A stretch of DNA of 64,000 nucleotides from assembly GCA_000004985.1 (NCBI GenBank), contig GG738845.1; one strand, given 5' to 3'. The notes under the pieces are model-generated. The model searched no databases and had not been told where the DNA came from. It saw nothing but the letters and a program-made list of their open reading frames with translations. Source of the DNA: Naegleria gruberi (taxonomy: Eukaryota). A program made the translations under genes and the position numbers. Positions 12,210 to 47,581 of the stretch are shown here, in pieces (position 1 is the stretch's first letter; the number at the start of each line of letters is the position of its first letter).

Positions 12210-12245
12210 CAAAAATAATTTTATTTTCCAATCAATCAAAAAAAA

Positions 12246-13190
12246 ATGAACAAACAAGCAGACAAAGAATTACAGCCAAATAACCTACCTGATGATTCGG
12301 AGAGTAAAAGAGAGCCAAAAACCCGAGACACCATGATTGCGGGTGCACTGGCTAGATGTGGTGCTGCCACAATAATGTATCCAATAGATGTTTGTAAAAC
12401 TAGAATGCAATTTCAGAGACGTTCCGCTCACTTTCATACAGTATACAGAAACAGTTTCCATTGTTTGTCTAGTATGATGAAAACAGAAAGATTTGGAATA
12501 TATAGAGGATTATCACTGCGATTGTTTTATATTGGTCCAGGTGCTGCAATTACATTTACAGCTTATGAAGGATATAAAAAACATGCAGAAAAAGCCAAAC
12601 AAAAAGGGGAAAGTATTCTTACATCTGGAGCCTTATATTCTCTAATTATTGGTGGATTGGGAAGAGCAGTCGAGTCAGGAATTAAAACTCCTTTCAACAT
12701 TATAAAACAACAATTGCAAGTTGAGGGACAATTGACAACCCAGTTCAACCGAGGATTGGTAAAATCAGTGAAACATATTATGGAAACAAAAGGAGTTGGT
12801 GGATTATTTGTTGGATATTCTGTTACACTTTGTAGAGATTTACCCTTCTCATTTCTATATTTTGCAAGTTATGAATTTATCAAAAACAAATCAGAAAATT
12901 ATTCCATTCCACTTCTCAAAGACTATGCTGCTGTTAGAGGTGCTATTGCTGGAAGTTTTGCATCTGTTTGTACTTTACCTTTTGATGTGATCAAAACAAG
13001 GATACAAACACAACACAAAATTTCATCCGATGCACACTATTCAGGTTATAAGGATGCTGTCTCTAAAATATTTAAACAAGAGGGTTTTGCTGGATTTTTT
13101 AGAGGTATAACTCCACGATTAATTTATACAATCCCGTCCACTAGTATTACATTCCATCTCTATGAAGTATTAAAAAATTATTTAAAATAA
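12246..13190 (+). CDS. Mitochondrial carrier family (SLC25) protein
   Basis: 314 aa with three carrier repeats carrying Px[DE]xx[KR]xR-type signatures (PIDVCKTRMQ, PFNIIKQQLQ, PFDVIKTRIQ). ATG at 12246 sits in an AAAAAAATG context. Confidence 0.85.
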   Translation: MNKQADKELQPNNLPDDSESKREPKTRDTMIAGALARCGAATIMYPIDVCKTRMQFQRRSAHFHTVYRNSFHCLSSMMKTERFGIYRGLSLRLFYIGPGAAITFTAYEGYKKHAEKAKQKGESILTSGALYSLIIGGLGRAVESGIKTPFNIIKQQLQVEGQLTTQFNRGLVKSVKHIMETKGVGGLFVGYSVTLCRDLPFSFLYFASYEFIKNKSENYSIPLLKDYAAVRGAIAGSFASVCTLPFDVIKTRIQTQHKISSDAHYSGYKDAVSKIFKQEGFAGFFRGITPRLIYTIPSTSITFHLYEVLKNYLK

Positions 13191-20104: not shown

Positions 20105-20191
20105 ATTTAATATTAAATTTAAAGGTTACTAAGAATTATTAATTTAGTCTCGGAATGAGAGGGCTCAACTGTTTTATGCAATTTAAAAAAA

Positions 20192-21507
20192 ATGAAACAA
20201 GCTCTGATATCAAAGATAAAAGCCAAAAAGCAAGAAGTTGTAAAATTTGATGAATCTAGTGACGAAGAAGAATCAAATATTACCATTCCACAACCAAGTT
20301 TAAAGAGGGCCCCTTCAAAATCGATACAACAATCAAACAAAAAAATCAAAACATCTTTTGCTTGGAATAACATCCCAACTTCTACAGCTGCTATCACCAA
20401 CAATATCAAAACATTAGAAACTCCCTCCGATGAGGAATCTGATGAGGAATCTGACTATGAAGAAAAGGAGGAATCCACCTCACCTCATAAACACATCATG
20501 ATGTTCACCACCTTACCGAAACAGAAATTGCAGAAATAGAAGAGTCTTTACCAAACAAGGCACCAACCAGTGAAGCAGATTTTGAGAGATTAGTTATAGG
20601 TGAACCAAATAATTCATTTTTATGGATTCAATACATGACATTTATGTTGAACACTTATGGATTCGAAAAAGCTAAGGAAATTGGTGAAAGGGCTGTTAAT
20701 AGAATACACTTCTCCAAGGAAAATGAACGTTTCAATTTGTGGAGTGCAATACTCAGTCTGTATGTGTCAAATAATAGAGGTAATGTGGACAGTGTAATTG
20801 AAAAGGCACTCCAAGGTGCTAGTAAGCCACATCTTATTTATCTACAATACGCAAAGATTTTGAACAAGTTATACGAAAAGAAGAAGCAAAGAATGGATGC
20901 AACTGAAGAGGAAGAAGATTCACAAAGTGAAAATGAGGAAGATGAAGAATTAAAAAACAAGAGAGCTAATGAACTAGAAGAATTACTCACTAAAATTGAC
21001 CAAGTTTATAGAAAGGCCTGTAAAAAATATAGAAATGAAAAGAAGGTATTTGAAGAATATGAACAGTGGTGTATTTCAACATTAAAGGACATCAAAAAAG
21101 CTGAACATGTATTGAATAGATCTTTGAAGGTTTATCCACAAAAAGAACACATTTCCCTCAAATCCAAGTTTGCAATCATTTTATACAAGTGTGAAAATAC
21201 TATTGAGGCAAGAAATGCCATGGAAAACATAATACAAAATAGTCCAAAGAGATCTGATGCATGGTCGATATATTTAGATTGTGAACAACAACATACTAAT
21301 GACCAGAGATATATCAGAGAGTTGTTTGAGCGTGTGTGCAATCTCACAACTCTTTCCACAAAAAAGATGAAATCATTCCTGCAAAGATATCTAAAGTTTG
21401 AAACACAACATGGTGATTCAGAGAGGCAAGAACACGTCAAACAAATTGCCAAAGAATATATCCAAAGCAAACTTGAAAAATCCAAGATTGATACTAATAA
21501 AGATTAA
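20192..21507 (+). CDS. RRP5/PDCD11-like protein comprising only the C-terminal HAT-repeat domain (two ORFs, 20192..20539 and a frame-shifted 20491..21507)
   Basis: The downstream frame reads ..EIAEIEESLPNKAPTSEADFERLVIGEPNNSFLWIQYMTFMLNTYGFEKAKEIGERA.. and ..SDAWSIYLDCEQQHTNDQRYIRELFERVCNLTTLSTKKMKSFLQRYLKFETQHGD... These align with the PDCD11/Rrp5 C-terminal HAT region ([25 protein letters not shown].. and ..TDVWSVYIDM..KRMKFFFKRYLDYEKQHG). There are no S1 domains upstream. The upstream acidic/K-rich ORF ends at TAG 20537..20539, in a frame offset from the HAT frame. Confidence 0.65.
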
Positions 21508-21713: not shown

Positions 21714-21737
21714 TTTTTTTTAATATTAAAATAAAAA

Positions 21738-26337: not shown

Positions 26338-27829
26338 TCATTTAGATTTCATGGAAGAAACAGGTGGGTCTTGAACAGTCTGTTTGCTAATCAACACATA
26401 ACCAGTCAATCCAGAAACAATTAAACATAAAAATGATGACAAAAGACCAATATCAGAACCAGATCCATGAGAAAATGTAAGAGAAAGCCAAACTAATCCA
26501 ATCATTAAAGATGAAAGAGAAATTGTTGATAAAAAAATATCTGTACCACTAGTAATGTAGTCTCCAAGCATAACCAATGAAATGACAACAGCCCAGATAA
26601 TAATTAAAATTCTAGCTCCAAGTAATGTAGACCACCTATAAATACTAATGGTTGCATCAAACAATTCTCTTGGTGAGTTGAACTGGCCTTCATGTACCTC
26701 ACCTACATTGTATCCATTGGATGCCTTTAAAAGTTCTATCTCTCCATTTGTGCTCACTTGTCTACCAATGATAGTTACACCCTTTCCTAGTGCTGGCTTT
26801 TGGTCAATAAATTTAATTCTAATATCTCCTGCTTCACAACTGGTAAATAAATCAGCAACTTGCCAATCCAAAAGAGATCCTTCTACAAATCCAAATAAAG
26901 TACGCAATGTTTTTTCAAAATTTGATGGCTCATAGGCAGAAAAGAAATAGCCAGATCCAATATATTTGAAATTGTGTTGAGTATTAGCAACAGTTCCCCT
27001 GATGGATTCTAATTGATTTTTAGAGAAGGAGATGGTTCTTTCTGGAATTTGATTTTTTGTAATCAAAGTAGGTCCAATATGATATTTTCCAACTGATACC
27101 CCAGAAGCATGGCTCTTCATACTCGGAAATGGATTTCTTTGAGGATTATGATGTGCAGCTGGTTGGTCGAAAGCTAAACTTGGGATAAGATGGTCAACCC
27201 AGCCTTTTTATCAGAACCACCAAATTGAGTGAAGAATATTAATAAGAGTAAGCTACCCTCCAATTTTAAATACATACCTTTTGTATAATAGTAAGTTCTA
27301 ACTGTAGTTTCAGAGCCATCTCTATTTTTTACTGTTTCGTCTCTAGAACTCTCTATCCACTGACAAAACTCAACTTGTCTTTTAACACTTAATGCATCGC
27401 TAAATGAAAGACCAAAATCATGATCAACAATAGGATAATCAGTTTGAACTTGTTCACTTGGTACGTGGAAGAAAATTAATTTTTGATTATTGGTTTCGGA
27501 TGGTTTTGAATAAATAGGATCGTGAATAATGACAGCCTTATCAGATACTTCGTTGAATGCTCTGATCATCAATGCTGATTCATTCTCAGCATAAAAAAAG
27601 TACAATGGTCCACCAACCAGTACGATGAAAAACAAAAGATATAAAAAGTATTTTACACAAGTATTTTCTATCTGTTTCAAATGATTAACCGATGCAAACA
27701 AAAATAAAAACAAACCTCTAATTGACTGTTATTAATTATTCTAGATCTACCAACACGAGTGCTGAACACCGTCGAAAAAAAGCCTGTATGTCCTCTGGTA
27801 GAAGGATTACTGGGGAAGAACAATGTCAT
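26338..27829 (-). CDS. TMEM43: TMEM43/LUMA-family membrane protein. Three exons, approximately complement(join(26338..27203,27278..27671,27716..27829))
   Basis: VKRQVEFCQWIESSRDETVKNRDGSETTVRTYYY matches human [33 protein letters not shown]. After splicing, KGWVDHLIPSLAFDQPAAHHNP matches [22 protein letters not shown]. A small upstream exon (ATG 27829) gives GFFSTVFSTRVG, matching GFLERLSETSGG. Introns are GTTTGT..AAACAG (~44 nt) and GTATGT..AAAAAG (~74 nt). The track's 'M' at 27713 is TTG. C-terminal TM helices are present. Confidence 0.7.
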
Positions 27830-28072
27830 TGTTATTATTATTTTTTTAATGAATGTATTCTTCTTCTATCGGGGAAGAGAAGCAAACTGAAGAAAAAACA
27901 CGTGGTAAACACGTTTTTCTACCAAAACTAATGGTTGCAGAAATCGGTTCCTCATTACTTTTGGTGGGTCTTTAAGAGACAATACTAAGAGCATTCGATG
28001 TAAAAAAGTGTTCAATATTATTTCATTCAAAAGAATTGTGTAATTAATTTTTTAAAAGAAAGACAGAAAAAA

Positions 28073-31000
28073 ATGCCACCAAAAGACAACAAGAAGATAC
28101 CCAACAAAAGTGCTACATCGTCGGGAGCAGGATTGAATCCAACATCAACACCTACAGAAAAGAAAAAACTGGATGCTCGTATCAAAACTTTAATAGAAAA
28201 TTGTGTAAAGAAGAGACATAGATCATTTTTTGTTGTTGTTGGAAACAGAGCACGTGAACAATTGGTGCATTTGCACTACATGTTAGCAAAGGCTAGAGTT
28301 AAGACAGCACCATCTATTTTGTGGTGTTATAAAAAAGAATTGGGATTTATTGCGTAAGTAGAGTTCAATGATTCGGTAATGTATTTATTTCACATTTCAG
28401 TGATGCCAAGAGTAGAAATAGAACCATAATTAAAAACTATGGAAAACAAGGAGATGAAGAAGTTCAAAAACATTTAAATACCCCATTCAATTTATTCCTT
28501 TCTGCTAATGAAATTCGTTATTGTTATTTCAAGGAAACTCAAAATATTCTTGGTAATACATATGGAATGTTGGTTTTACAAGATTTTGAAGGTGTTACTC
28601 CAAATGTTTTGGCAAGAACTGTGGAAACAGTTGAAGGAGGAGGCATGGTTGTTTTGTTACTTCCAGAAATGAATTCTCTTAAACAACTTTACACAATGAC
28701 TATGGATGTTCACTCTCGTTTTAGAACAGGCCATGAGGATGTGGAAATTACAGCTAGATTCAATGAAAGATTTCTTTTATCTTTGGCATCTTGTAAGAAT
28801 TGCCTAGTTGTGGATGATCAACTTAATATTTTACCTATTTCTTCTCATATTAAGGACATCAAACCAATAGTTTTACAAGAAGAAGAAAGATTGGAAAATC
28901 ACATATTATCTCCTAAGGAAAAGGATCTTGTTGATCTCAAACACAAATTAGAAGAGAATCAACCTCTTGGAACATTAGTTTCTCAAGCAAGATCACTTGA
29001 CCAAGCTAAAGCTATTCTTAAATTTGTGGATGCAATTTCCGAAAAGTCTCTTCAAACTACTGTTGCCCTTTTGGCTTCAAGAGGTAGAGGTAAATCTGCA
29101 GCTTTAGGTCTTGCTATTGCATCTGCAGTTTCATACGGCTATTCAAACATATTTGTGACATCACCAAGCCCTGAGAACTTGAAAACACTTTTTGAGTTTA
29201 TAATCAAGGGTTTAGAAGTTCTCAAATACAGGGATCAACAAGATTATGAAATTGTTCAATCAACAAATCCAGCTTTTAATAATGCTGTAGTTAGATTGAA
29301 TATATTCAAAAATCACAGACAAACAATCCAATATATCCAACCAGAAGATAGTCAAAAATTAGGTCAATGCGAGTTATTGGTAATTGACGAAGCTGCTGCT
29401 ATTCCATTACCTCTTGTTAAAAAGCTTTTAGGACCTTATTTGATTTACATTTCTTCAACTATTAATGGTTATGAAGGAACAGGTAGATCTCTTTCTTTGA
29501 AGCTTTTAGAACAATTGAAGGAAAAAGGTCAAAAACAAACAGGAAAACAGCTCACATCAGCAAGAAAATACTTTGAAGTTAAGTTGGAAGAGCCAATCAG
29601 ATATGGAGAAGGAGATTCCATTGAAAGATGGTTATATGACGTTTTGTGTCTTGATGCTACTTCTGCAGTACCATTAAGTTCCAAATGTCCTCATCCTTCT
29701 GATTGTAACCTTTACTATGTTAACCGTGACACACTTTTTTCATATAATCAAGCTTCTGAGGCTTTCTTACATGTAAGTTAGGACATTATTTTTTATTTCT
29801 AACTCTTTCTGTAGAATATGATGTCTCTCTACGTATCATCTCACTACAAAAACACACCAAATGACCTTCAATTAATGTCTGATCATCCATCTCACCATTT
29901 ATTTGTATTGCTTGGTCCAATTGATGAAAATAGCGCAACATTGCCAGATATTTATTGTGTTATCCAAGTTTGTATGGAAGGTAAAATTAATAGACAAACT
30001 GTTCTTGCAAATTTATCAAAGGGTCTTAACCCTGGAGGAGATTTGATTCCTTATTTGGTATCAAGACAATACCAGGAATCTGATTTTGCTGCCTTGTCAG
30101 GCGTAAGAGTTGTAAGAATTGCTACTCATCCAGAGTATAAGAGAGTATGTAGTAATTAATTTTATGAATAATTAACCGAAAAAAGATGGGCTATGGTACC
30201 AGAGCTCTTGAACTTTTAACTAAATATTACCAAAATGAAATTCAAAACCTTGATGATACACTCGAAGAAGACGAGAAGGAAACTGTTAATGAAGTCAGAG
30301 CTGTAGGATTGGCTAATGAAATTATAAAACCTCGTGGTAAAAACGAACTTCCTCCATTACTTCAATCACTTGAAGAGCGATCTCCAGAGCAAATTCACTA
30401 CATGGGAGTTTCATATGGTATGACACAACAACTTTATAATTACTGGAAGAAGAACGGATTTGCTCCAGTCTATATTCGTTTAACCTCTAATGAACTTACA
30501 GGAGAACATTCATGTGTAATGTTGAAGTCACTTTCTACAACTCCTGAAGATACAAGAAATTGGCTGAATTCCTTTGTTGAAGATTTCAAACGAAGATTCC
30601 TTGCATTACTTTCCTACGATTTCTCTACATTCAACGCAGCACTTACACTCAGTATCTTGGATTACAAGATGGAAGATAATAATGAGTTAGGAAACAAATC
30701 ACTTACTGTTTCTGAAATGGATCAATATCTCTCCAAGTTTGATTTGAAGAGACTTGCCTCTTATTCAAAGAACTTGGTTGATTATCATGTAATTCTAGAT
30801 TTACTTCCAACTTTAACAAGATTTTTCTTTTTGAATAAGATGCCATTTAACTTGTCATATGCCCAGGCAGCAATCTTGTTAGGTGTAGGTTTGCAACATA
30901 AAAAAATAGAAGATGTTGGAAAGGATATTGATTTGCAAAGTAATCAAATCTTGGCCCTCTTCAATAAGAGTATTAGAAAGTTTGTTAAATACTTCAAGAT

Positions 31001-31580
31001 TATTGACAAGCAACGTTTCATCTCTGCCTCAAGTTTAATTCAACCAAAAGTTGAAGATAATATGGAAGAAAGTGAGGATGAAGCAAATGAAACCGATAAG
31101 GGAAATGTTGCATTTGAGGAATTAGATGAAATGGAAAGCGAAGACGAAGATGAGAAGAAACCTGCTTCTAAAGACATTTTGGATTTATTTGAAAAACCAA
31201 TAGAAACAGACGAGAGATTTAAAACTGCTTCCAAGAAAAGAAAACAAATTAGTAAGGACGCCAAGGAAGAAGAGCCAGAAAATAAGAAGAGAAAAGATGA
31301 TCCAAAGAGAAAGGAGTTCCTCAAGCAAGCTATTTCTAACAGTGAATTTAAAATATCAGGAATTTCTGAAGAAGATTTAGAAAAGGGTGTTGAGGAGAGT
31401 GGAGGTAAGGGAGCTCTTGCTTCTGGTTCTGTCATTGTAGGAACACAAAAAGAGGAGCAAAAAAAGGAAGTGAAAAAGTATATGATGAAGAGTGAAAAGG
31501 AAATCAAAGAAATTGAAAAGAAATACCAAAACCAATTATTCAAGAAGGGAGGAAAGAAGAAGAGAGATGTTAAACATTAA
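28073..31580 (+). CDS. NAT10: RNA cytidine acetyltransferase NAT10/Kre33. Four exons, approximately join(28073..28353,28401..29772,29815..30144,30186..31580)
   Basis: Conserved NAT10 N-terminus (..IKTLIENCVKKRHRSFFVVVGNRAREQLVHLHYMLAKAR..), helicase/ATPase region (..ASRGRGKSAALGLAIA..LLVIDEAAAIP..) and acetyltransferase core (..IATHPEYKR|MGYGTRALELL..). There is a basic K/E-rich tail. Three ~41-47-nt introns are GTAAGT..TTTCAG, GTAAGT..TCTGTAG and GTATGT..AAAAAG. Each donor overlaps the stop of a track ORF. Confidence 0.9.
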
Positions 31581-34887: not shown

Positions 34888-37800
34888 TCAGAAAACTCTT
34901 GTTGGAAAGTACGTGNNNNNNNNNNNNNNNNNNNNNNNNNNNNNNNNNNNNNNNNNNNNNNNNNNGTAAATTCTCAAGGTACTATTAAGAGATTGATCAC
35001 CTTCCATAGCAAACCATTGGCTTCTGTTCTGGTAGTCAATTTGAAATCTTCCAGTTATATGTCCACTATTAATCATTTGAACACTCATTCTGTAAACATC
35101 ACCAACCATCAAAGACCCAAAATTACAGGAATTTGGAAACACTTGAATATTACTCAGACCTGGTTGAGGAGAGGGTGATGATATGGTTTCTCTTGTAATT
35201 GAAGATTTTTGCATATCACTCCTAGATGGAAGTTTCTTTTCCATGGTTTTTTGAGGTTGGTTTGGTGTTTTCATGGAGGATGTTTTCACCTTGATTTTGG
35301 AAGGATCATGCAGAGATTTGTATTCATCATTTGGAACGGCTTCAGCAGTTTTGATGAATGATTTCTTGAACCAAACCGATTTGCTAACATTTTCCACAGA
35401 ATAAAAACTTGGATCTTGAGAGTTTCCTTTTCTAGTCGATTCGGTTTTGGTATCGTAATTGTCTCCTTCGTTGTGGACTGGTAAATAATTGGGTTCTATA
35501 TTTTCGTTCTCTGAATACTCTTCATTAGTTTCTACACTTGCCTCTTCATTGGATTGTTCTGGAAGGCTTTCATTCTTTTCCTTTTTTTCCTTCTTTGGAA
35601 TTCCTAACACCAACGTTTTCCAAACTTCTAAAGCTTCAGGTTCGTGCCAGTATTTAGGAGTATTGCTATTTTTCTTTTCCTGCTTGTACTCATTAATGTT
35701 TAGCCCTCTATCTTTTTCTATTTCATCTTTTTTAACCACTTGAATGACTGTAAAATCCTCAGGATTCTGTTCCTCCTCTATTGGTGCTTCCTTTTCAAAG
35801 ATGTTATTTTCGGAGAATATAGTTGTTAATTCATTCTTGATTTCTTCTTCCTTTTGCTTTTGGTCTTCACTCCTGATATCACCCTCTTCAGAATTTTCTT
35901 TTGAATATCCTTCTTTTCTTACTCTCCATTCTTTCCATCGATTGAATTTATCCCTTAATTTAGATCTATCATCTATTGACAGAGGTCTATACTTGTTGAA
36001 ATGCCTGTGATAGTATAGAGAAGGATCAGCCGTTTTCAGTCTGCCAAGAGGAATGACAGCTTTTGGTAGGGAGTAATAATTTTCGGGGCTTTCCAAATAT
36101 TTAGTTCCTTGATCGTATTTAGTATAGATATGAACAGAAGAAACACTTCTAAACTCTCCAACCATATCTTCAGAAATATTAATCTTCTCAGGATTCGATC
36201 TTGATGCATCAGTAAATGGCGCAATAAAGCTTTCTGGAAGATACTCAAAAGCATATGAACCTTTCATGGATAACTCAAAAAGTCGAGGTTGAATTAAGAA
36301 TTTGTGACTGTTGTCCTTTGGAATTTCTCCAATAACAGAAACAGGAGGTAATCCAATTTTGTTCTTTTTGAAATAATTGATAAGAGACTGAGAAAGTGCA
36401 TATGTTTCCATGTCTTCTTGAGTACCATCTGTTTCCTCAGCCGTGATACCATTTGACTCATCTTGTTCTGGTGGTATTGAGGAGCTCTTAGGTCTTTTAC
36501 TTCTGGAGACTTTTGGTGTACATGCTCTGCTTGCTTTTCTTTCTTCAATAAGCATTCTTTCGTTGTGAATATCCTTTTGATTTTTTTCACTTTCTTGATA
36601 GAATTTGATCATTGATCTACCTGTTCCTGTGACTACAAATTCATGGCCAACAATATCAATCATTTTCATTCCTCCATTCAAATAATCGAAAGAGTACATT
36701 CCAAAATAATACTTGGAGGACTTTTTTTGGAATCTTTCTTTGTTGATTGAGGTAAAGGATAAACTGGATGGCTCTAAATCAACAAAATTTTTTTCTAAAT
36801 CAATAGTAATCATATGACCTAGTTTGGAAAGGGTAAATTGCTTTCTGTCTCTGTAGGTAAATAAAGATTGGTCTGGAAGTTCATACAAAATCTTATCTTT
36901 GAGAATTTTAACACTTGCAAAACCGCTTCTTTCGATAAGGGTATAAAAATCATTAACATGAATAAACTCATCTTCATCTTCTTCGTCATCAACAAAAACT
37001 TGACCATGAACAACTGGACATCTCCAAATACGGAAGCCATCAGAATATTGAACCAGTTGAGAACTGTCACTGAAAATCACTTTCATAACTAAATCTTCTC
37101 TTACATGGACTTCTGCATCCTTCCATGCATCAACATTTTTAACATATTTAACAGTGTCTAAATTCAAAATAGTTCCATCTAATAGCTCTACACACCTTGC
37201 ACCTGTCGGGGCAGTCTTTAAGCATGAACCGTCAGAATTAAAGTGATGAATTTCGCTGCTTGGAAATAATGTTTGCGAAATATCCCCTTCAAATCTCCTT
37301 ATTATTGCTCCGTCTTTTGTTACAGTTAGAGAAAGCTCTCTTACAAGCTTCTTTTCAACTGTATCAGTAGTAGAGTTCCATATTTCAATTAATTCTTCTA
37401 CAGGATGTAAACTAATAGTCATCTTGTCAGTAGAATTTCTATCTAATCCTTTAAACCCAGTACCAAAAACCTTCTTCTTAGATTTTAATTGTGAGGGATA
37501 GAATTGATGGATAGATCCATCTTGCATTAAGCGTATTTGAAGGCCGTTATTGCAACTGAAGTCAACCTCTGTCGATTTAGCATCAACTTGGTCTTGTAAA
37601 AATGCTATTAGACTAGAATCATCCTCAAAAGAACAGGAAAAATATGACTTTCTTTTCAACATATTATGAGGATTATCCAAACTGTTAATGGTATTTTTAA
37701 ATCCAAAAACAAGCCCATCCTTTTCAACAGTACAAGAAATGCTCTTGTCTGTACAATATTCCGACTTTAGATAAATGATTGAACCATCACTTGGGTAAAG

Positions 37801-40173
37801 GTTGACTGTATCAATATAAATGTCTGCACCTTTGCCTTCAAATATATATCTTTCATTTTTAGGATCGAGAATGATATCATGAGGCACTTTTGGTAGATGT
37901 GGAAGGGGAAGTGCAAGAATATTTTGAATGGTTGAAGAGGTTTCCTGAGTATCTTTGTGATGATCTTCGTCTTCTGCTCCAAATTGAGACAATTTCTGTA
38001 TCCTTTTGTGACATTCATTATATTCCTTATCAAATTGAATTTTAAATTGATCTGAAAAATAGGTTTGATAGTTAGAAAACCACTCCAAAAAATACTCATT
38101 AAGGGAGAACCTTTTAAGCATGGAAATACGTTCGTATCTACAAGGCGGTACCTCATTGTAAAAAGCTAAAAGGACCGAATTATTCAACTCGTTATATTTT
38201 GAAATCAGGCTTGGCTTTTCAAATAATCCAATATATGAAATAACCTCAATCATTGTTTCAACATTAAAATGTTCTTCTACATTACGATCACCCAAGTCTA
38301 AATCAACTCCTTTCTCTCTTAGCATTTCCTCAAACTCCATCATTACTAATTCTTTGTCTACTTCTTCTCTAGAATATTTGTAAGGTCCATGAATATCCTC
38401 GTCCTTTCCAGAAAGGAAGTGATAAATTTCTGTTTTTATACTCACTCTCTCTTCTTCTGTTTCTATTGTAGCGGTTTGATTACTTAGCTCAGGAAATAAG
38501 TGAAGCATTCTAGTAACTTTTCTTTCAATGTCAATATTTGTTGTATCGTGATGTATTGGAATTGTGCAAAGAGCATGTTCTGATATTTTGGAGCCAAATG
38601 GTATTAATGACAAACCTCCCACCTTCTCCAAAGTATTTATGGCAGGTCTTTGCCTCTCTTTCAAATCAGATACTTCTAAAAAGTTTATGCTTGGGTTGAA
38701 AGCAGTGTGTAAAAGGTTAGTTAAGCTTTCTGTATAATCTTTGGTTAGTTTTTTATCATCTCCATTGGATGAGAGCTCATATTTATCTTCAACTGTTTTG
38801 ACCAGTTGTTCTATTAGACAATGAAGGATTACAGCTTCAGAACAGCAACTGTCTGGTATATTTTCGAGTAACTTGTTGTAATAACTCAAATCCAATATTG
38901 TATTTTCATCCGAAACATAAACTTGTTCAAGTTTTCCAATAGCTTTTTCGTAATCGTCATAACGATTCATAATTACTTGAGCATATTTTTCTAATGTGGA
39001 GAAAAATCTACCAACTTCTCTCTCTAAACTATCACCTGGATCAAATTTTGAGTTATCGTCATCATATGTATACTCAACGAAAGAATGATTGATTTGTAAA
39101 ATATTTCGAATAAATCCTGAAATATTTTCATCTCTCAATTTACAAGAATGTTCAATAATTTGGCAAAGTCTGGTATCTGGTTTAAAAGTAGATGTTGGTG
39201 TTGCTTGTGTTGATCCCTTCTTTTGAGAACCAGTTTTAGTAGCACTCTTGGGACGTTTTGCGTCAGTGCTTTTTGGACGTTTTTTCTTGTCACCAAGTCT
39301 TTGTGAAAGATCTTCGTCCATTATTGGGGGAGGACCTCTTTTCTTTTCTTTTCCCAACTTAACAACACAATCAAAGTTTACCCCACAATCCATTAATAAA
39401 TTAATATCTTCTTTTGTTGCTGGAAAATCTTTGAACAAAAAGTAGAGAATGGGCTCATTCTTAACAATAAAACCTTCTTCTCTTGGGGTGATTGCTGCAT
39501 TTTCGATAATTTGATTGGAAATTTCTTGTTCATTATTAATTATTGCTTGTTCGGAAGGTTTTTTGTTTTTGTCAAATTTTTCTTTTTCCTTTCTTTTTTC
39601 CTCCTCTTTCTTTTGTAAATCTACTTGCTTTTTCTTTTCATCTTCAGATTTCTTTTTTAAATAATCATCTATCTGGAAAGAAATAAACCTTTTGTAAATG
39701 AGCCCAATTAGCCTCTTTCTATCATTTTTTAGCTCTGAAAGTCTATTTTGTTTTGCTTGCTCCTCTGCTTCCGGATTTTTTGATGTTTTTGAGTTGCCCA
39801 TCAATTTTGTTTCTTCAGCCAAATTCTTTTCATATTCTGCATATTCTTCAAATTTTTGTATTTTGGCTCCTTGTATTACTTCATTATATATTAATACTCG
39901 GAATTTGCTGGTGTCGATGGATGAATGAATTGTGGTGAAATTTCCAAATATTGTTTCTAAAAGAGATTCCCTCTCCTCTGCCTCTAATTGTTGGATAGCA
40001 TCAGGAGATAAACTTTCATTCAGTGGAGTTACTGGAGTAGATGATGGAACTTTAAGTGTTTCCGAAGGTGTATTTTGATTTGTTGGTTCCTGAGAAACAA
40101 GAGGATAATCGGTATCCAAAAAATAAGAAAAGTAACGAAAATCCCTCTCGTAAGGTTTTTGGATATGTCTCAT
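34888..40173 (-). CDS. Very large (~1760 aa) protein, probably flagellar, with a C-terminal ASH/PapD-like beta domain (SPAG17/PF6-like candidate). The 3' end is interrupted by an assembly gap
   Basis: Uninterrupted minus-strand ORF. The track start at 40182 is TTG, and the first ATG is at 40173 (MRHIQKPYERD). It has K/E-rich stretches. The segments ..PILYFLFKDFPATKEDINLLMDCGVNFDCVVKLG.. and ..EAVILHCLIEQLVKTVEDK.. resemble SPAG17 N-terminal blocks. That comparison is from memory and is not verified. The C-terminal ..PNSCNFGSLMVGDVYRMSVQMINSGHITGRFQIDY.. resembles an ASH/MSP-like fold. The N-run 34916..34965 lies inside the 3' end. Confidence 0.45.
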   Translation of the reverse strand: MRHIQKPYERDFRYFSYFLDTDYPLVSQEPTNQNTPSETLKVPSSTPVTPLNESLSPDAIQQLEAEERESLLETIFGNFTTIHSSIDTSKFRVLIYNEVIQGAKIQKFEEYAEYEKNLAEETKLMGNSKTSKNPEAEEQAKQNRLSELKNDRKRLIGLIYKRFISFQIDDYLKKKSEDEKKKQVDLQKKEEEKRKEKEKFDKNKKPSEQAIINNEQEISNQIIENAAITPREEGFIVKNEPILYFLFKDFPATKEDINLLMDCGVNFDCVVKLGKEKKRGPPPIMDEDLSQRLGDKKKRPKSTDAKRPKSATKTGSQKKGSTQATPTSTFKPDTRLCQIIEHSCKLRDENISGFIRNILQINHSFVEYTYDDDNSKFDPGDSLEREVGRFFSTLEKYAQVIMNRYDDYEKAIGKLEQVYVSDENTILDLSYYNKLLENIPDSCCSEAVILHCLIEQLVKTVEDKYELSSNGDDKKLTKDYTESLTNLLHTAFNPSINFLEVSDLKERQRPAINTLEKVGGLSLIPFGSKISEHALCTIPIHHDTTNIDIERKVTRMLHLFPELSNQTATIETEEERVSIKTEIYHFLSGKDEDIHGPYKYSREEVDKELVMMEFEEMLREKGVDLDLGDRNVEEHFNVETMIEVISYIGLFEKPSLISKYNELNNSVLLAFYNEVPPCRYERISMLKRFSLNEYFLEWFSNYQTYFSDQFKIQFDKEYNECHKRIQKLSQFGAEDEDHHKDTQETSSTIQNILALPLPHLPKVPHDIILDPKNERYIFEGKGADIYIDTVNLYPSDGSIIYLKSEYCTDKSISCTVEKDGLVFGFKNTINSLDNPHNMLKRKSYFSCSFEDDSSLIAFLQDQVDAKSTEVDFSCNNGLQIRLMQDGSIHQFYPSQLKSKKKVFGTGFKGLDRNSTDKMTISLHPVEELIEIWNSTTDTVEKKLVRELSLTVTKDGAIIRRFEGDISQTLFPSSEIHHFNSDGSCLKTAPTGARCVELLDGTILNLDTVKYVKNVDAWKDAEVHVREDLVMKVIFSDSSQLVQYSDGFRIWRCPVVHGQVFVDDEEDEDEFIHVNDFYTLIERSGFASVKILKDKILYELPDQSLFTYRDRKQFTLSKLGHMITIDLEKNFVDLEPSSLSFTSINKERFQKKSSKYYFGMYSFDYLNGGMKMIDIVGHEFVVTGTGRSMIKFYQESEKNQKDIHNERMLIEERKASRACTPKVSRSKRPKSSSIPPEQDESNGITAEETDGTQEDMETYALSQSLINYFKKNKIGLPPVSVIGEIPKDNSHKFLIQPRLFELSMKGSYAFEYLPESFIAPFTDASRSNPEKINISEDMVGEFRSVSSVHIYTKYDQGTKYLESPENYYSLPKAVIPLGRLKTADPSLYYHRHFNKYRPLSIDDRSKLRDKFNRWKEWRVRKEGYSKENSEEGDIRSEDQKQKEEEIKNELTTIFSENNIFEKEAPIEEEQNPEDFTVIQVVKKDEIEKDRGLNINEYKQEKKNSNTPKYWHEPEALEVWKTLVLGIPKKEKKEKNESLPEQSNEEASVETNEEYSENENIEPNYLPVHNEGDNYDTKTESTRKGNSQDPSFYSVENVSKSVWFKKSFIKTAEAVPNDEYKSLHDPSKIKVKTSSMKTPNQPQKTMEKKLPSRSDMQKSSITRETISSPSPQPGLSNIQVFPNSCNFGSLMVGDVYRMSVQMINSGHITGRFQIDYQNRSQWFAMEGDQSLNSTLRIYXXXXXXXXXXXXXXXXXTYFPTRVF
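34916..34965. other. Assembly gap (50 N)
   Basis: A run of 50 'n' characters. It lies inside the 3' end of the large minus-strand gene. Confidence 0.99.
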
Positions 40174-40259
40174 TATGATCAATTTTTTTTAAATTTATTG
40201 TACGTTTTAATGGCGGGAAATGTTTTTTCAAAATTACAATTTTGTTCTACGGAAATAAC

Positions 40260-42581
40260 TTAGTAATTCATTTCCATCATGTATTTTCTGTCAGCCTCTC
40301 TGAATAAACTTCCTTCATTTGGGTAGGGATCTTTGGGAGGGGAATTATTTGTGAGTGTAGTTCTATTTTGTTTTGTTTTTTCTTCTGTTTTTCCTGTCCT
40401 ATATTTCCACCTTTTGATTCTTTCTCTTTCCTTTTCCATTTTAATTATTTGGTTTTTGAACCCCCAAATTCCCATATCATGAGTTTTCGCAAATATTTCA
40501 GCTTCTTTCAGCACCCTCATTTGTTGAGAAATGAATGGTTTGGAAATACTGGTCAAGTTATGCTCTTCAACTCTTGAATCTGACGAATCAAAGTGAAGTG
40601 CAGCTAACCCTTGTTCAACAACCCACTTATTAATCCATATTCTTTCAGGAAGGTCAATACTTAATATATCTTTTTTTATCATTTGGGTTGATTTAAGACA
40701 ATCATCTCCTTCAGAGACCAGCCAAACGTCACACGGAAGAGAGCTGTCCAAACTATTAATTTCCTTTCCAGTATTGTTTGATTTTGTAATAGCTATAGTG
40801 GTTGTTGGTATAAAAACTATTACCTGTTTCCCAATTAATTTGGTAGTAAGAGGGCCATAAGCGGTGGATGCTTTATTCTCACCATCAACAATAAAGGAAA
40901 TTTTGTCAAGATACAAATATATCATAATTGAAGCAGTATGCTCCGTTTCTTCATTGTGCTTACTCGCCCTTGAACGAGGTGAGTTCATCATTCTTGGAGA
41001 AAGAATAGGATCAGTAATTGGTTTTTTTTGGTATGATACAATAATATTCATTATTAAGCTAATAGGATCTATGAATACTACTTTCCCAGGAAGTGTTTTT
41101 CCTGAAAGATGGTCCATGAAAAATGTTCTTGGAGTTCTTGGAGAAATTAAATTGTGAGCAACATTATTAGAAACCTGGGAAGAGTTAATCATTGAGGAGT
41201 TTAAGGAGTTTAAGGATGGAACAACCTTAGCTAGTTTCTCTTTTGTTGTGCTGGAATTATCATTTCCTGTTGATTGAAAGGCTGACATGATAGCTTCCTC
41301 ATATGCCATTAAATGGCCCATTTTGTTTGAAAGAGATTCTGAAAGATCTCTCAATGTTGTGTTTCTCTTTTGAGAAAGAAGACCTTGCTCAGTCAATCGT
41401 AAAGCGTGGAAACTTTCCAACCTTTCGTTCCATCTTGTGAAAATTTTCTCTTTTTCCTCCTCTTCATCTTTATGGAATTTGCTTGAAGCTCCATCTCTAT
41501 ATGTTTCAAGAAAATTTTCTTCATTACCATCCTCAAGTTCCTTCATTAAATCTTGCATTGTTGGTGACCTTAACGATTCATCATCTATTCCTTTCCTTTT
41601 TTTAAGTTTGTTCAAAGCTGTCATCATTTTTTTTCTCAGTTCTACCCACTCCTTGCTTTTAGTATCAGAAACCTTGTTAGGAGAGAAACTGAAATTTGTT
41701 TTAGATGATGTACCCAACTCAAAATCAATTAATCTCTCCATCCACGCTTCTCCAAGAAGTAGTTTGTATTCATCATTAGTTAAAACAACAAGTCTATTGA
41801 AGGGTATTGACTCTTTTACATTGAAATAATGCAAAAAAACACCATCTTTAAATAAAACACTTATTACTGCTTCCTTTTCTTTACACTCTATCACCAAACC
41901 TACTTTAAGATTATTGGGTTTCACACTATCTAGAGAAACTTTTCCACAAGTGGGAGTAGTAAACAAGTTTCGTTGACTTAAACTAGGAAGGCTTGGTGGA
42001 GCTTTGCTTAATGTGTTTGCTTTAGCTCTAGAAAAAGCTACTGTCTTTTTTTCCTTTCCATTTGCATATATATCTGCTCTTCTCTGAAGAGATGAGTGAA
42101 GATACTCATCATATTCTCTTTGTTTTACATAATTTTCCATGCTTTTGTATTTTGGTCTTTTTGCTTGATGATCTGAACTGGATAAATCCAATTCATCATC
42201 AAATTCTGTTAGAAATGGCCCCTTAGAGGTGATTTCCTTCTCTCTATGAAACAATAACTTGTTTGAATTTTTGTATATTGGTGACAGGGACAGATTTTCT
42301 GAATAGTCACCGCTTTGTGCTAGTGATCTGTTCAGATAAGGTGCATTGTATTTTCGGAATGAATTACTTCTTTCTGTTAATGGTTTTTCATCAAAACCGT
42401 TATTACTGTCACTAGATGAAGGTCTTAAACTTTTTTCTAATTTCTTTGAATCCACAGCTTGTTGTATTTGTGAACTAATGTTTTTTTTTCTTAAATAAGT
42501 TGGGAGTGCATTTGGTTCAAAAGCCTCCAACAACACCATTACAAATTGTCCTTCCCTTGGTTTTGAACAGCCTAAATTCAT
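40260..42581 (-). CDS. Protein with a C-terminal staphylococcal-nuclease-like (SNase/Tudor-SN-type) domain. N-terminal region unknown
   Basis: 773 aa with a true ATG at 42581. The C-terminal ~150 aa (..VIVFIPTTTIAITKSN..CDVWLVSEGD..INKWVVEQGLAALHF...AEIFAKTHDMGIWG) match the SNase fold pattern (..N..LV..G.A.v....AE..Ak..k.GiW). Confidence 0.5.
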   Translation of the reverse strand: MNLGCSKPREGQFVMVLLEAFEPNALPTYLRKKNISSQIQQAVDSKKLEKSLRPSSSDSNNGFDEKPLTERSNSFRKYNAPYLNRSLAQSGDYSENLSLSPIYKNSNKLLFHREKEITSKGPFLTEFDDELDLSSSDHQAKRPKYKSMENYVKQREYDEYLHSSLQRRADIYANGKEKKTVAFSRAKANTLSKAPPSLPSLSQRNLFTTPTCGKVSLDSVKPNNLKVGLVIECKEKEAVISVLFKDGVFLHYFNVKESIPFNRLVVLTNDEYKLLLGEAWMERLIDFELGTSSKTNFSFSPNKVSDTKSKEWVELRKKMMTALNKLKKRKGIDDESLRSPTMQDLMKELEDGNEENFLETYRDGASSKFHKDEEEEKEKIFTRWNERLESFHALRLTEQGLLSQKRNTTLRDLSESLSNKMGHLMAYEEAIMSAFQSTGNDNSSTTKEKLAKVVPSLNSLNSSMINSSQVSNNVAHNLISPRTPRTFFMDHLSGKTLPGKVVFIDPISLIMNIIVSYQKKPITDPILSPRMMNSPRSRASKHNEETEHTASIMIYLYLDKISFIVDGENKASTAYGPLTTKLIGKQVIVFIPTTTIAITKSNNTGKEINSLDSSLPCDVWLVSEGDDCLKSTQMIKKDILSIDLPERIWINKWVVEQGLAALHFDSSDSRVEEHNLTSISKPFISQQMRVLKEAEIFAKTHDMGIWGFKNQIIKMEKERERIKRWKYRTGKTEEKTKQNRTTLTNNSPPKDPYPNEGSLFREADRKYMMEMNY

Positions 42582-42652
42582 TTCTCCTCAATCCGTTAAG
42601 TCTCATAAGTCATGTATTTTTTTTTAGTTGAATACGTTTTGGCGGTTTATTG

Positions 42653-42667
42653 CGGGGGGGGAGATCT
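42653..42667. repeat. Left terminal inverted repeat of the MITE-like element
   Basis: CGGGGGGGGAGATCT. Reverse-complement identical to 43145..43159. Confidence 0.6.
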
Positions 42668-43144
42668 CCAGTCTATGGTCCACTCTATTCCTTATTAACA
42701 TATTAGTTCTCTACAGTTTTCTAACCACCTAAATATGAACCCTATTATTATTAGATTTATTAAAAAAAAATGTCACAACCTAATTACATGGTCAACCCAC
42801 ACATGTGATGGAATTGGTAGAATCAAATACTGATATACTAATTGTCTGCACTAAACCAATAAACAAACTTTCTCTTACTATAATGTCATTCTTATCAACG
42901 AAATTAAAATAAGTTTCCGAAGCTGAAAAGAATTGTTTAAAAGTAAACATGTGGTTAAACATATTGTTCATGTGATGTATCAAGAAAACTATCAACAAAT
43001 TAAATGAAATTATGTTTGTGAGCGGAGTAGTCAAACAACAACAATCCAATTTTTTAAATTATTTTTTTAATTACAAAAGCGTCACTGTAGAGACTAAAAA
43101 TGGTGTTCCCGCCACAGGCAGACCTCCAGTGGTTTGTCAGCACT

Positions 43145-43159
43145 AGATCTCCCCCCCCG
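43145..43159. repeat. Right terminal inverted repeat of the MITE-like element
   Basis: AGATCTCCCCCCCCG, followed by the TTTATTG direct duplication. Confidence 0.6.
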
Positions 43160-43209
43160 TTTATTGATTACTCAGTTACATATCTTCAATCACAAACAAT
43201 CACAAAAAA

Positions 43210-44493
43210 ATGAGCAATGATGAAATAAACATTGAGGTGGAAGGATTTGATGGCAGTGTTGGTGGATCTTCAGAACAAATTGAAAAAAGAAAAGAAATAA
43301 TTGATGAAAGTGATGAGGATGAAGTTGATGATCCATTAAAACCTGAAATGAACGAAGATTCCCTTATAACCCTAGAAAATATTTATGAGGACAGGATGGT
43401 TTTTGATCCTTATGATAACATCCATGAAAACGGAAAGCTTAATTTTGCAACCAAAAACAACAAGAATTACCTTAAAATTTTCTCAATAACATGGAATATG
43501 ATGGGTCTATCTTCTCCAAATGAGGAATATTTACTTTCATTCATTCCAACAAATAATTATCATATCTATTGTTTTGCAACTCAAGAGTGTGAGAGATCTA
43601 TTGGAACTTCCGTAATCATTGAATCAAAAGCAAAATGGGAAAAGACACTTAACTCAATTATGGGAGATTCATATATTCAACTTGAAAGTTGTACATTAGT
43701 AGCAATACACTTGATAATATTTGTACGAAAGGAACTATTAACACAAATAAGCAATGTAAGAACTTGTAGTGTTCCTACTGGTTTATATAACCAAATTGGA
43801 AACAAGGGTGGGGTTTCGATTTCTTTCAAATTAGGAAAGCGAAAATTTGTTTTTATTAATAATCATCTCCCAGCTCACCAAGAAAATGTAAAAGAAAGAA
43901 ATGAAAGTGTAAAGAGAATTATTGATTCTATCGACTATGAAGGGAAAATTCAGCAACAACCCTCAAAAACAAAAGTGAATCCAGCGGTTTCACAATCCAA
44001 TTTTACTCTATTTAAACGAGCAGATAGACCAGACATTCTCAAAAAGAACAACTTTGTGTTTTATATGGGTGATTTAAATTATAGAATTAATGGAAATAGA
44101 AAAGTTGTAGATAAGGTCTTGAAAATGAATGATCTTAAAGTTCTTCAGCTAAATGATCAATTAATTCTTGAACGAAAAAAAGGAACAGTTGACCTAAAGC
44201 ATTTTTCTGAAGGAGAAATAATCTTCCCACCAACTTACAAATTTGAGAAAAATTCAAACCAATACGACCTCAGTAAGAAGCAGAGAATACCTGCTTGGAC
44301 TGATAGAATTCTCTTTAAACCTTCTAAAAAGGGTAAAATCCACCTTGTTGACTATAATTTTTTCCCACAAGTCAAATATTCTGATCACAGGCCGGTCTAT
44401 GCTTTATTTCTGGTTGATTGTCCAGGTGTAATCCTTGAAACCACAAGCCAAGAACCAAATGCTTCAACTTCTCAAGTTTGTTTGGTGCAATAA
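43210..44493 (+). CDS. Inositol polyphosphate 5-phosphatase (IPPc/EEP family)
   Basis: 427 aa with the signature motifs WNMMGL, FATQEC, GDLNYRI, PAWTDRILF and SDHRPV, typical of INPP5/synaptojanin-type catalytic domains. An acidic N-terminal extension precedes them. Confidence 0.85.
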   Translation: MSNDEINIEVEGFDGSVGGSSEQIEKRKEIIDESDEDEVDDPLKPEMNEDSLITLENIYEDRMVFDPYDNIHENGKLNFATKNNKNYLKIFSITWNMMGLSSPNEEYLLSFIPTNNYHIYCFATQECERSIGTSVIIESKAKWEKTLNSIMGDSYIQLESCTLVAIHLIIFVRKELLTQISNVRTCSVPTGLYNQIGNKGGVSISFKLGKRKFVFINNHLPAHQENVKERNESVKRIIDSIDYEGKIQQQPSKTKVNPAVSQSNFTLFKRADRPDILKKNNFVFYMGDLNYRINGNRKVVDKVLKMNDLKVLQLNDQLILERKKGTVDLKHFSEGEIIFPPTYKFEKNSNQYDLSKKQRIPAWTDRILFKPSKKGKIHLVDYNFFPQVKYSDHRPVYALFLVDCPGVILETTSQEPNASTSQVCLVQ

Positions 44494-44540
44494 TCTTTCT
44501 AAAAGAAAATACAGTTTAAAAATTGCATCAATTAAAAAAT

Positions 44541-45229
44541 ATGTTTGTTACTGTAGTGATAAAAGATACACTAATCATTAAACCAGAACGATTCAAAAAG
44601 GATATTGTTACAGCAGTGGAAGATGAAATTCATATGAAATATTCTAACAAAATTCTTCCCGATGTAGGATTGTGTGTGTCGATATATGATTTTATTTCAA
44701 TAGGAGATCCTCATATTTATCCAAATCAACAAGGAAATTATTTTGTGGAAGCAAGTTTTAGGTTGATAGTGTTTAAACCATTTGTTGGAGAAATTATTAC
44801 AGGAAGAATAATGGGATCGGATCCTGAACAAGGCCTAAAAGTAGCTATTGGATTTTTCAACGACATTTACATCCCACCCTATTTATTAGCCCAACCATGT
44901 AAATAGTATGTTTATTATTTTCAGCAAATTTATTAATAATAATTAAATTAAGTGATGAAGAGACAAGCCAGTGGCAGTGGATTTATGAAGACAATGCTCT
45001 TCCGTACGCCCATCCACAAGAAATACGATTCCGAGTAAACTCTCTAACATTCAACACCACCATAGATTCTAATCCTCCTCGTCACACAGAGGAGAGAAAC
45101 AAACCACCAACCGAAGACAACCAAACACAAGATGAGGAAAAAGCACCAATGATCATCACAGGAAGAGCCAATGAGCCTGGTCTTGGATTGACATCATGGT
45201 GGACACAGTCTGGAGATGAAGAACAATAA
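44541..45229 (+). CDS. POLR3H: DNA-directed RNA polymerase III subunit RPC8 (Rpb7-like). Two exons, approximately join(44541..44905,44953..45229)
   Basis: Exon 1 is the Rpb7-like N domain (MFVTVVIKDTLIIKPERF...GLCVSIYDF...FRLIVFKPFVGEIITGRI..GFFNDIYIPPYLLAQPCK). After a 47-nt GTATGT..AATTAAG intron, exon 2 reads YDEETSQWQWIYED..QEIRFRVNSLTFNTT..PMIITGRANEPGLGLTSWWTQS. It lines up with human POLR3H ([48 protein letters not shown]). The track start at 44523 is TTG, and the ATG is at 44541. Confidence 0.85.
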
Positions 45230-45303: not shown

Positions 45304-47581
45304 ATGTTGAATAACCATCTTCACGATCAAACCACTGGAACATCATCAAATCGTCTTCAATCGGAAGATAAAAAAAGGAAAAAGAAAGAAAAAGAAGCAA
45401 AAAAGAAGAAGCAAAAATATGAGGAAATTTTAAACGATCTAGATAATGAAGTAGCAAAAAAAGCCCAGGAAAAGCTTGTGAGTGATATTTTCAGTCAAAA
45501 GAAGGACGTTCAATTTGACCATTCAAATTTGGAATTAAAACCTGACCATAAACTCCGTCCAGTTTGGGTTTGTTCAGGTACTGATGGCAAATTTCATATT
45601 TTCATGGAGACCTTTTCACCAATTTATCAACAGGCTTATGATTTTCTTGTTGCTGTTGCTGAACCTGTTTCACGTCCTGAAAATCTACACGAATATGTAT
45701 TAACTGAATATTCTCTCTATGCAGCTGTCAGTATTGGTATGAACACCGAACAAATTATTCAAGTTTTGGAGAAGCTAAGTAAGGTTAAATTATCCGAAGC
45801 TCTCATCAATTTTATTAGAGATGTAACAAGAAAATATGGTAATGTAAAATTAGTTCTGCAGAAAAATAGATTTTTCGTAGAGTCACCCCATTTGACTATC
45901 ATGGAAAAGTTATATGAAGATAAAATCATTAGTGCAGCTGCTATTGTTCCTGATCCAAATGAGTTTCCAAATGTTGATAGATCCAAAAGATTTATTATTA
46001 GAACACGATCAAAACAAAATGAATTGGAAAAGTTTCAAAAGCAAGCTCTTGCTAATACATCAACTGTAAATAAGGGATCTAAAATTCAAACTGAAATGAT
46101 AAGAGCTGTAAATCAAATTGGAGATGATGAAGATGATGATGCTGATGATGATTTTGATATTTCTTCAGCAGTTGAAACGTTTTATTTATTCGAAATTAAT
46201 CCAACAGAGGTTGAACATGTGAAAAAGCAATGCATTCAGATNNNNNNNNNNNNNNNNNNNNNNNNNNNNNNNNNNNNNNNNNNNNNNNNNNAGTCAGTGT
46301 ATTGAATGGAAGAATCAATTTAAATTATGGAGTACTATTGATGAGAATCGTGTAGTAGTATTTACTTCTCAGGAGAAGGATGCTTTACCAAAAGATGATG
46401 ATCCCTTAATCATCATTACAACATACACTATGATTACCCATACCAGAAAGAGAAGTGGTGAGGCAAAGGAGGTTATGGATTACATTCAAAGTAGAGAATG
46501 GGGATTATTAATTTTAGATGAGGTCCACGTCGTTCCCGCCAACATGTTTAGACATGTTGCGAGTGTAAAGTCTCATTGTAAATTAGGATTGACAGCCACT
46601 CTTTTACGTGAAGATAACAAGACAGACGATTTATATTTTTTAATTGGTCCAAAATTATATGAAGCTAATTGGCTTGATTTACAACAAAAAGGCCATCTTG
46701 CTAATGTGCAATGTGTGGAAGTTTGGTGTCCCATGACTGCCGAGTTTTTTGCTGAATACTTAACAGCCAATGCTAAGAAAAAGACTTTACTTTATGTTAT
46801 GAATCCAAATAAGTTTAGAGCTTGTGAATTTCTGATTAGATACCATGAAAAGCAAGGAGACAAAATCATTGTTTTTAGTGACAATGTTTTTGCTCTCCAA
46901 GAATATGCTGAAAAGTTGGGGGTACCCTACATTTTTGGTAATACCAAACAACAAGAACGTGTTTATTATTTGAACCAGTTCAGAAATACTAACCATTATA
47001 ACACTATTTTCATCAGTAAGGTTGGTGATACAGCAATTGACATTCCTGAGGCAACTGTGATTATTCAAATATCATCTCATTTTGGTAGTAGAAGACAGGA
47101 GGCTCAACGTTTGGGTCGTATCCTTCGTCCAAAAGGTGGTGGACTTAAAAATCAACAGGCCTACTTTTACACACTAGTTTCTCAAGATACACAAGAAATG
47201 TTCTTCTCCACAAAGAGACAACAATTTTTAATTAATCAAGGCTACAGCTTTAGAGTCTTGCCTGATATTCAAAAGTATTACAGGCAAGGTGCTAATGAAA
47301 TGGGTCTAACTCTCAAACACATGAATACCAAGAAGGAAGAATTAGACATGTTGGCTATTGTAAAAAAGGCTGAAGATGCAAGAGGCCAAGAAGAAAAGAT
47401 CAACGTTGATGATGAAGTTGAAAAATCATCTAGTAGTCTTGCTTCAATCTCTGGTGGAAATGAAATTTATTACCATTCCTATGAAGCTTCTACAACAACT
47501 TCCAGAAGAAGAGGTAAAGCTACCAAAGTTCCTTCTACTGTGCATCCACTTTTCAAAACCAGAACCCAACACAAGGATTAA
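45304..47581 (+). CDS. ERCC3: TFIIH helicase subunit XPB/ERCC3/SSL2 (interrupted by an assembly gap)
   Basis: N-terminal XPB block (..[60 protein letters not shown]..). The helicase motifs are ..[22 protein letters not shown].., ..[10 protein letters not shown].. and a helicase-C region (..[41 protein letters not shown]). The 50-N gap 46242..46291 splits the coding sequence. Confidence 0.9.
46242..46291. other. Assembly gap (50 N) inside the XPB gene
   Basis: A run of 50 'n' characters. The reading frame across the gap cannot be verified. Confidence 0.99.

Follow-up and report, generated by a model that had tools for sequence, protein, structure and literature searches.

A 507-bp segment of the Naegleria gruberi nuclear genome (42653-43159), lying between two divergently transcribed genes, is best explained as a single insertion of a short, non-autonomous DNA transposon of the terminal inverted repeat type (TIR; class II, cut-and-paste). 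We put the probability of this explanation at roughly three in four. The segment, hereafter the element, was analysed within a stretch of 64,000 nucleotides that is referred to throughout as the window. It is bounded by perfect TIRs, each of which is abutted by one copy of a target site duplication (TSD). The features of the element and its two neighbouring genes are as follows, in window coordinates.

40260-42581, minus strand: left flanking gene, with a 773-aa product that lacks a Pfam domain and is conserved in Naegleria
42646-42652, no strand: left TSD copy, TTTATTG, identical to 43160-43166 and adjoining the left TIR
42653-42667, plus strand: left TIR, CGGGGGGGGAGATCT, consisting of C, eight G residues and then the palindromic AGATCT; complementary to 43145-43159 at 15 of 15 positions
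42662-42672, plus strand: left member of a direct repeat, AGATCTCCAGT, overlapping the left TIR
42668-43144, no strand: interior of the element, 477 bp, non-coding
42703-42716, plus strand: left subterminal motif, TTAGTTCTCTACAG, located ~50 nt in from the left end, with its inverted partner at 43085-43098
43085-43098, minus strand: right subterminal motif, CTGTAGAGACTAAA (reverse complement TTTAGTCTCTACAG), located ~60 nt in from the right end
43120-43130, plus strand: right member of the direct repeat, AGACCTCCAGT, identical to AGATCTCCAGT at 10 of 11 positions
43145-43159, minus strand: right TIR, AGATCTCCCCCCCCG, exact reverse complement of CGGGGGGGGAGATCT
43160-43166, no strand: right TSD copy, TTTATTG, adjoining the right TIR
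43210-44493, plus strand: right flanking gene, 427 aa, inositol polyphosphate 5-phosphatase (INP) family (PF22669, E = 1e-71)

The original prediction, made from the letters of the sequence, had described the two TIRs, the TTTATTG copies outside them and the subterminal direct repeat, and all three were found as described. It had further stated that runs of eight G or C are otherwise absent from the window. This was confirmed: G8 and C8 occur only in the left and right TIR of the element, and the next longest G/C run is one C6. The length of 507 bp, however, had been assigned to the interior, whereas it is that of the whole element with its TIRs. An alternative parse of the ends assigns the final G of the right TIR to the target site and gives an 8-bp TSD (GTTTATTG, 42645-42652 and 43159-43166). 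The flanking direct repeat stops at 8 nt, position 42644 being G against C at 43158. For a single copy, the 7-bp TSD with symmetric TIRs would seem the more parsimonious of the two parses. Inside the TIRs, TCTCTACAG is found exactly in both subterminal arms and CCACT lies at an equal offset (nt 28-32) from both ends. When the subterminal regions (nt 16-120) were aligned with each other, 28 of 500 shuffles did as well. The symmetry is therefore only marginally above shuffles, and is suggestive rather than proven. The AGATCTCCAGT/AGACCTCCAGT repeat, being direct and not inverted, is asymmetric relative to the ends of the element.

A perfect 15-nt inverted repeat is not rare in itself. One was found within 3 kb in 31 of 80 block shuffles, and the analytic expectation is 0.87 per window. 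The joint expectation of an inverted repeat of at least 15 nt together with an abutting 7-mer is 1.1e-4 per window, and lower still for so G-rich an arm, whilst inverted repeats of at least 13 nt with a TSD of at least 5 nt were found in 0 of 80 shuffles. The proposed signature of a cut-and-paste insertion is thus far beyond chance. With an arm that is 73% GC, the probability of a partner of such G-rich composition within 3 kb is ~1e-7. Among the perfect inverted repeats of the real window with arms no more than 3 kb apart, the TIR pair is the longest and the only GC-rich one, and no other of them is abutted by a direct repeat of more than 5 nt. Searching with the 15-mer and allowing up to 3 mismatches gave the two TIRs as the only sites in the window, against a shuffle mean of 0.15 and with two or more matches in 0 of 100 shuffles. 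The significance of the element therefore comes from the abutting 7-nt repeat, the G-rich arm and the rank of the pair as the longest perfect inverted repeat, and not from a 15-nt inverted repeat alone.

Elsewhere in the window, a 12-nt AT-only palindromic inverted repeat, TTTAATATTAAA, occurs at 20106-20117 and 21719-21730. It is flanked by a 5-nt direct repeat (ATAAA) and encloses ~1.6 kb, including the ORF at 20635-21507. This pair is probably a chance match of low-complexity sequence.

The element has no coding capacity. Its longest ORF is 85 aa long with a TTG start. A search of this ORF against 1.84 billion representative proteins returned a single match, to a bacterial RTX-type repeat protein (E = 2.5e-6), which was rejected as spurious because the two are aligned via five repeats of a short motif. 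No Rfam family matched the element at E<=1, no tRNA was detected there, and the interior shows no similarity to the rest of the 64-kb window. The interior had been predicted to be AT-rich and non-coding. The second part of this description stands, whereas the first does not mark the element out, as its interior (31.0% GC) is composed like the pooled host spacers (31.4%), with the window as a whole at 33.3%.

The element was predicted to lie between the 5′ ends of divergent genes starting at 42581 and 43210, and both start codons were confirmed by an annotated protein or by orthologues. Over its 427 aa, the product of the ORF 43210-44493 shows 100% identity to an annotated N. gruberi "predicted protein" on a 1.56-Mb scaffold, its next best matches coming from N. 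lovaniensis (72%), N. fowleri (76%) and Willaertia magna (58%). On the left, the N-terminus of the product that begins at ATG 42581 (MNLGCSKPREGQFVMVLLEAF...) aligns from residue 3 of the N. fowleri and N. lovaniensis orthologues (P0122 and P0123). Both flanking start codons are therefore real, and the element is inside a true divergent intergenic spacer, 71 nt from the ATG at 42581 and 50 nt from that at 43210. The N. gruberi INP protein is shorter than its orthologues at the N-terminus by ~100 aa (427 aa vs 527 and 524 aa in P0002 and P0003). Truncation of the right gene by the insertion was considered and rejected; the extra N-terminus of the orthologues shows little conservation, and a tblastn search of the window revealed no displaced exon.

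Removal of the element and of one TSD copy leaves a spacer of 64 + 7 + 43 = 114 bp, and the reconstructed empty site reads GTTTTGGCGGTTTATTGATTACTCAGTT. At 628 bp the present spacer is among the six largest, against a window median of 121 bp (n = 36 ORF spacers, a measure that overestimates true intergenic distances because at least one such spacer holds an exon and an intron). The 114-bp remainder is near this median, as expected had a compact bidirectional promoter received the insertion. It also falls within the range of the spacers between the window's other clean divergent pairs (19, 91 and 134 bp), none of which has a comparable inverted-repeat structure. The spacer that reveals the overestimate is at 27714-28566, where an apparent divergent spacer of 853 bp is partly taken up by a NAT10-like gene: its first exon (ATG 28074) and one intron lie there, and its later exons are the ORFs 28567-29781 and 30186-31580.

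The window has a GC content of 33% and is dense in housekeeping genes, among them RAD25/XPB, Rpc25, NAT10, adenylosuccinate synthetase, a PPR protein and Sec5. It contains two scaffold gaps, each a run of 50 Ns (34916-34965 and 46242-46291). The element lies within an 11.3-kb stretch that is free of gaps, the nearest N runs being 3.1 kb and 7.7 kb away. Of the gaps themselves, that at 46242-46291 leaves the RAD25/XPB helicase split between the ORFs 45304-46305 and 46430-47581, and that at 34916-34965 falls inside the 3′ part of a 1764-aa ORF (34888-40182).

Relatives of the element were sought in several collections. Within the 64-kb window there is no second copy of either the ends or the interior, and no ORF with a transposase domain. 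The 52 kb of N. lovaniensis and N. fowleri DNA contain no similar element and no G/C run of 7 or more. The paired-TIR pattern returned 0 matches in the metagenome collection and 0 in prokaryotic genomes, and a single-end 20-mer returned 0 in viral contigs. The same 20-mer gave 9 matches in metagenomes, on contigs of 44-68% GC; each of these is alone, with no partner TIR and no similarity to the interior, and they are therefore regarded as chance matches. The TIR string CGGGGGGGGAGATCT, looked up literally in the text of 8 million papers, gave no match. The lack of a second copy, an empty site or an autonomous partner in the window, in the 52 kb of sister-species DNA and in the metagenome, viral and prokaryotic collections counts against the transposon explanation, as do the marginal subterminal symmetry and the lack of a transposase domain among the window ORFs.

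In N. lovaniensis and N. fowleri the orthologues of the right gene (contigs L001 and L002) and those of the left gene (L012 and L013) are on separate contigs with different neighbours. The two flanking genes are thus not adjacent there, and these species have no orthologous spacer. The pair formed by the INP 5-phosphatase gene followed by Rpc25 is kept in N. gruberi (43210-44906), N. lovaniensis and N. fowleri (6001-8640 on both L001 and L002). The gene upstream of INP differs among the three species, and the genes past Rpc25 differ too; microsynteny in Naegleria is very short-range.

Inverted repeats were also seen in the sister species. In N. lovaniensis (L001, PYSW02000040.1, 5380-5855) a perfect 28-nt inverted repeat, TTGGAAGATCGAAATGGGAGCGAGTTGG, occurs at 5386-5413 and 5822-5849. 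It extends to ~49 nt at 92% and encloses ~408 bp upstream of the INP orthologue, which starts at 6001. This repeat lacks both sharp ends and a TSD and is not similar in sequence to the element of N. gruberi; it could be either another TIR element or a structural repeat. On the same contig, four genes (~4 kb) downstream of the INP orthologue, a 293-aa gene (11820-12701) carries a DDE_Tnp_4 domain (PIF/Harbinger-type transposase), so DDE transposase genes are present in the genus. In N. fowleri (L002) a perfect 18-nt inverted repeat, GAGAGTTTAATGATGATG, is found at 3205-3222 and 3526-3543; it is intergenic, with arms 303 nt apart and no flanking duplication.

The element had been described as MITE-like. 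In structure this is apt, as it shares with MITEs a length below 800 bp (507 bp), a lack of coding sequence, a host-like AT-rich composition, perfect short TIRs with a TSD and an insertion near gene 5′ ends. However, the class needs a multi-copy family with an autonomous partner, and the element was found as one copy in a search that took in the window, the sister-species DNA (52 kb) and the collections of metagenome, viral and prokaryotic sequences. Since a multi-copy family is the property that defines the class, "MITE" would here be a structural description only. To our knowledge, the classical groups of MITEs, Stowaway (TA) and Tourist (TWA), do not have termini that start with G8.

Comparison with known superfamilies gave partial likenesses only. 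hAT elements have TSDs of 8 bp, with variants of 5-7 bp known, ends that are usually 5′-YARNG and an 8-bp target of the form nTnnnnAn. The element resembles them in its short TIRs (10-25 bp in hAT) and in its short subterminal motifs, and may do so in its TSD, of 7 bp or, under the alternative parse, of 8 bp, the canonical hAT length. However, its end CGGGG has G in place of A at position 2 and so departs from YARNG, and position 7 of GTTTATTG is T. In the G-rich start of its TIR, a frequent feature of MULEs, the element is like Mutator/MuDR, but the TSDs of that superfamily are generally 9-11 bp against 7 (or 8) here. A MuDR-type element, MuDRF, has been reported from the same species, N. gruberi, with a 9-bp TSD (PMC3164196).

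It had been argued that a 7-bp TSD fits none of the common superfamilies and that the family may therefore be unusual. This argument does not hold, because TSDs of 7 bp are made by Galileo of the P superfamily (PMC2775673), by the hAT7 lineage, alongside which hAT5 and hAT6 also exist, and by Kyakuja (both PMC12730594), those of Dada are 6-7 bp (PMC3706591), and the 8-bp parse would give the standard hAT length. The P superfamily, in which TSDs are 7-8 bp, shares with the element, through its Galileo/1360 lineage, both a cut-and-paste TIR structure and the 7-bp TSD. However, Galileo has the TSD consensus GTAGTAC and long TIRs, nearly identical over ~40 bp (PMC2775673), whereas the element has an AT-rich, non-palindromic TTTATTG and a 15-bp TIR starting with CG. 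The hAT7 lineage has so far been described only in rust fungi (PMC12730594). Kolobok has been reported in N. gruberi with a TTAA duplication (PMC9587614); it differs in its target, together with piggyBac, Tc1-mariner and PIF-Harbinger (TTAA, TA, TWA), from the 7-nt TTTATTG of the element. Judged by these comparisons of termini and targets, none of Galileo, hAT, Dada, Kyakuja, MuDRF and Kolobok is claimable as the family of the element. That its 5′-CG... ends match no consensus of the superfamilies known to make 7-8-bp TSDs is a further point against the transposon explanation. In favour of it, DNA transposons are known from Naegleria: they make up 1.25% of N. lovaniensis (PMC6125883), and MuDRF, Kolobok and the DDE_Tnp_4 gene on L001 are further instances. 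The N. gruberi genome, however, has a repeat content of ~5% (PMC6125883), with classified TEs put at 0.28% (2026 bioRxiv preprint 10.64898/2026.06.24.734286). As Naegleria genomes are very repeat-poor, the prior for a transposon in any given spacer is low.

Other explanations were weighed against this background. The element lies exactly in a bidirectional promoter, and might be a resident, non-mobile structure of that promoter, its G8/C8-AGATCT arms forming a cruciform or paired protein-binding sites around a regulatory module, with the 7-mer repeat coincidental or part of the design. The single strand of the element folds better than shuffles (z = -3.9), mainly through its terminal stem, and a long inverted repeat, unrelated in sequence, is also found upstream of the N. 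lovaniensis orthologue of the right gene. However, neither a cruciform nor a binding-site model gives a role to a 7-nt direct repeat just outside the inverted repeat, for which the chance P is ~1e-4, the other divergent spacers of the window (19-134 bp) lack such a structure, and the N. lovaniensis repeat shows neither similarity nor sharp ends nor a TSD. We consider a promoter structure of this kind improbable. The same stable fold, dominated by the terminal stem, could be taken for that of a gene for a structured non-coding RNA, with the 15-bp G/C-rich stem closing it, but the centroid structure amounts to little more than this stem, Rfam gave no match within the element at E<=1, the sister-species loci contain no homologous segment, and the TSD would be left unexplained. 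Of all the explanations considered, an RNA gene is the one we believe least.

An artefact of assembly, cloning or finishing had been named at the outset as one outcome that would undo the prediction. It would take the form of homopolymer-tailed or linker-flanked foreign DNA, or of a leftover in-vitro sequencing transposon. The assembly is a gapped draft with N runs, the termini are unique within the window, and G8/C8 beside a BglII site does resemble linker or tailing chemistry. In dG/dC tailing, however, the homopolymer adjoins the insert and the restriction site is outside, which is the reverse of the order in the element. We know of no cloning step that duplicates 7 nt of host sequence, and the duplication would thus go unexplained. 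Commercial in-vitro transposons (Tn5, Mu, Tn7) have 9- or 5-bp TSDs, other ends and marker genes. Moreover, no match was found among 72,556 plasmid/vector and 50,697 phage records, a single 39-nt phage match at 87% (E = 4e-3) being noise; the interior has the composition of host spacers, and the nearest gaps are 3.1 kb and 7.7 kb off rather than adjacent. We consider an artefact unlikely. A mobile insertion of another class was also considered, namely a solo LTR, a Dada- or Kyakuja-like element without true TIRs, or a DNA fragment captured at a staggered double-strand break. A size of ~0.5 kb with a short flanking duplication would also suit a solo LTR, but LTR elements end in 5′-TG...CA-3′ and have TSDs of 4-6 bp, whereas the element has CG...CG ends and a TSD of 7 bp. 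Fragment capture would not give perfect 15-bp inverted ends. Dada and Kyakuja are alike to the element in TSD length (6-7 bp; PMC3706591, PMC12730594). However, Dada has no TIRs and inserts into tRNA/snRNA genes (PMC3706591), and Kyakuja has 5′-CA..TG-3′ ends and likewise no TIRs (PMC12730594); the element has perfect TIRs, CG ends and no tRNA or Rfam small RNA at its site. An insertion of any of these kinds is, in our judgement, improbable as well.

Under the preferred explanation, that of a non-autonomous TIR transposon, a DDE-type transposase encoded elsewhere in the genome would act in trans and bind the 15-bp ends, CGGGGGGGGAGATCT, and possibly also the symmetric subterminal TCTCTACAG motifs. 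The transposase would excise the element and join its 3′ ends to the target, the two strands of which would be cleaved with a stagger of 7 nt (8 in the alternative parse), and repair of the gaps would duplicate TTTATTG on both sides. The target would have been a compact bidirectional promoter of 114 bp, which was stretched to 628 bp with 71 nt and 50 nt of native sequence left beside the two start codons. From this geometry it is plausible that the element contributes to promoter function. That both the ends and the TSD are perfect would fit a recent event, but dating from 22 nt has little power.

As it stands, the element is a single insertion, textbook in structure and ordinary in kind. There is a small chance that it is the first recognised member of a heterolobosean TIR family with homopolymer-G termini and 7-bp TSDs, mobilised by an unclassified transposase or by one of a divergent hAT- or P-like lineage so far unreported in Discoba, and active recently enough to have remodelled a bidirectional promoter in a nearly transposon-free genome. 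Were there a whole family ending in G8 and moved by a transposase of no known class, the case would be more than ordinary, and filled and empty alleles would point to current activity. If confirmed as a family, the element would add a DNA-transposon lineage to a very repeat-poor and phylogenetically isolated model protist, and its perfect ends and TSD would serve as a marker with which to ask if transposition continues in Naegleria today. The element would further provide a case of a transposon quintupling a 114-bp bidirectional promoter, with an effect on two genes that could be measured.
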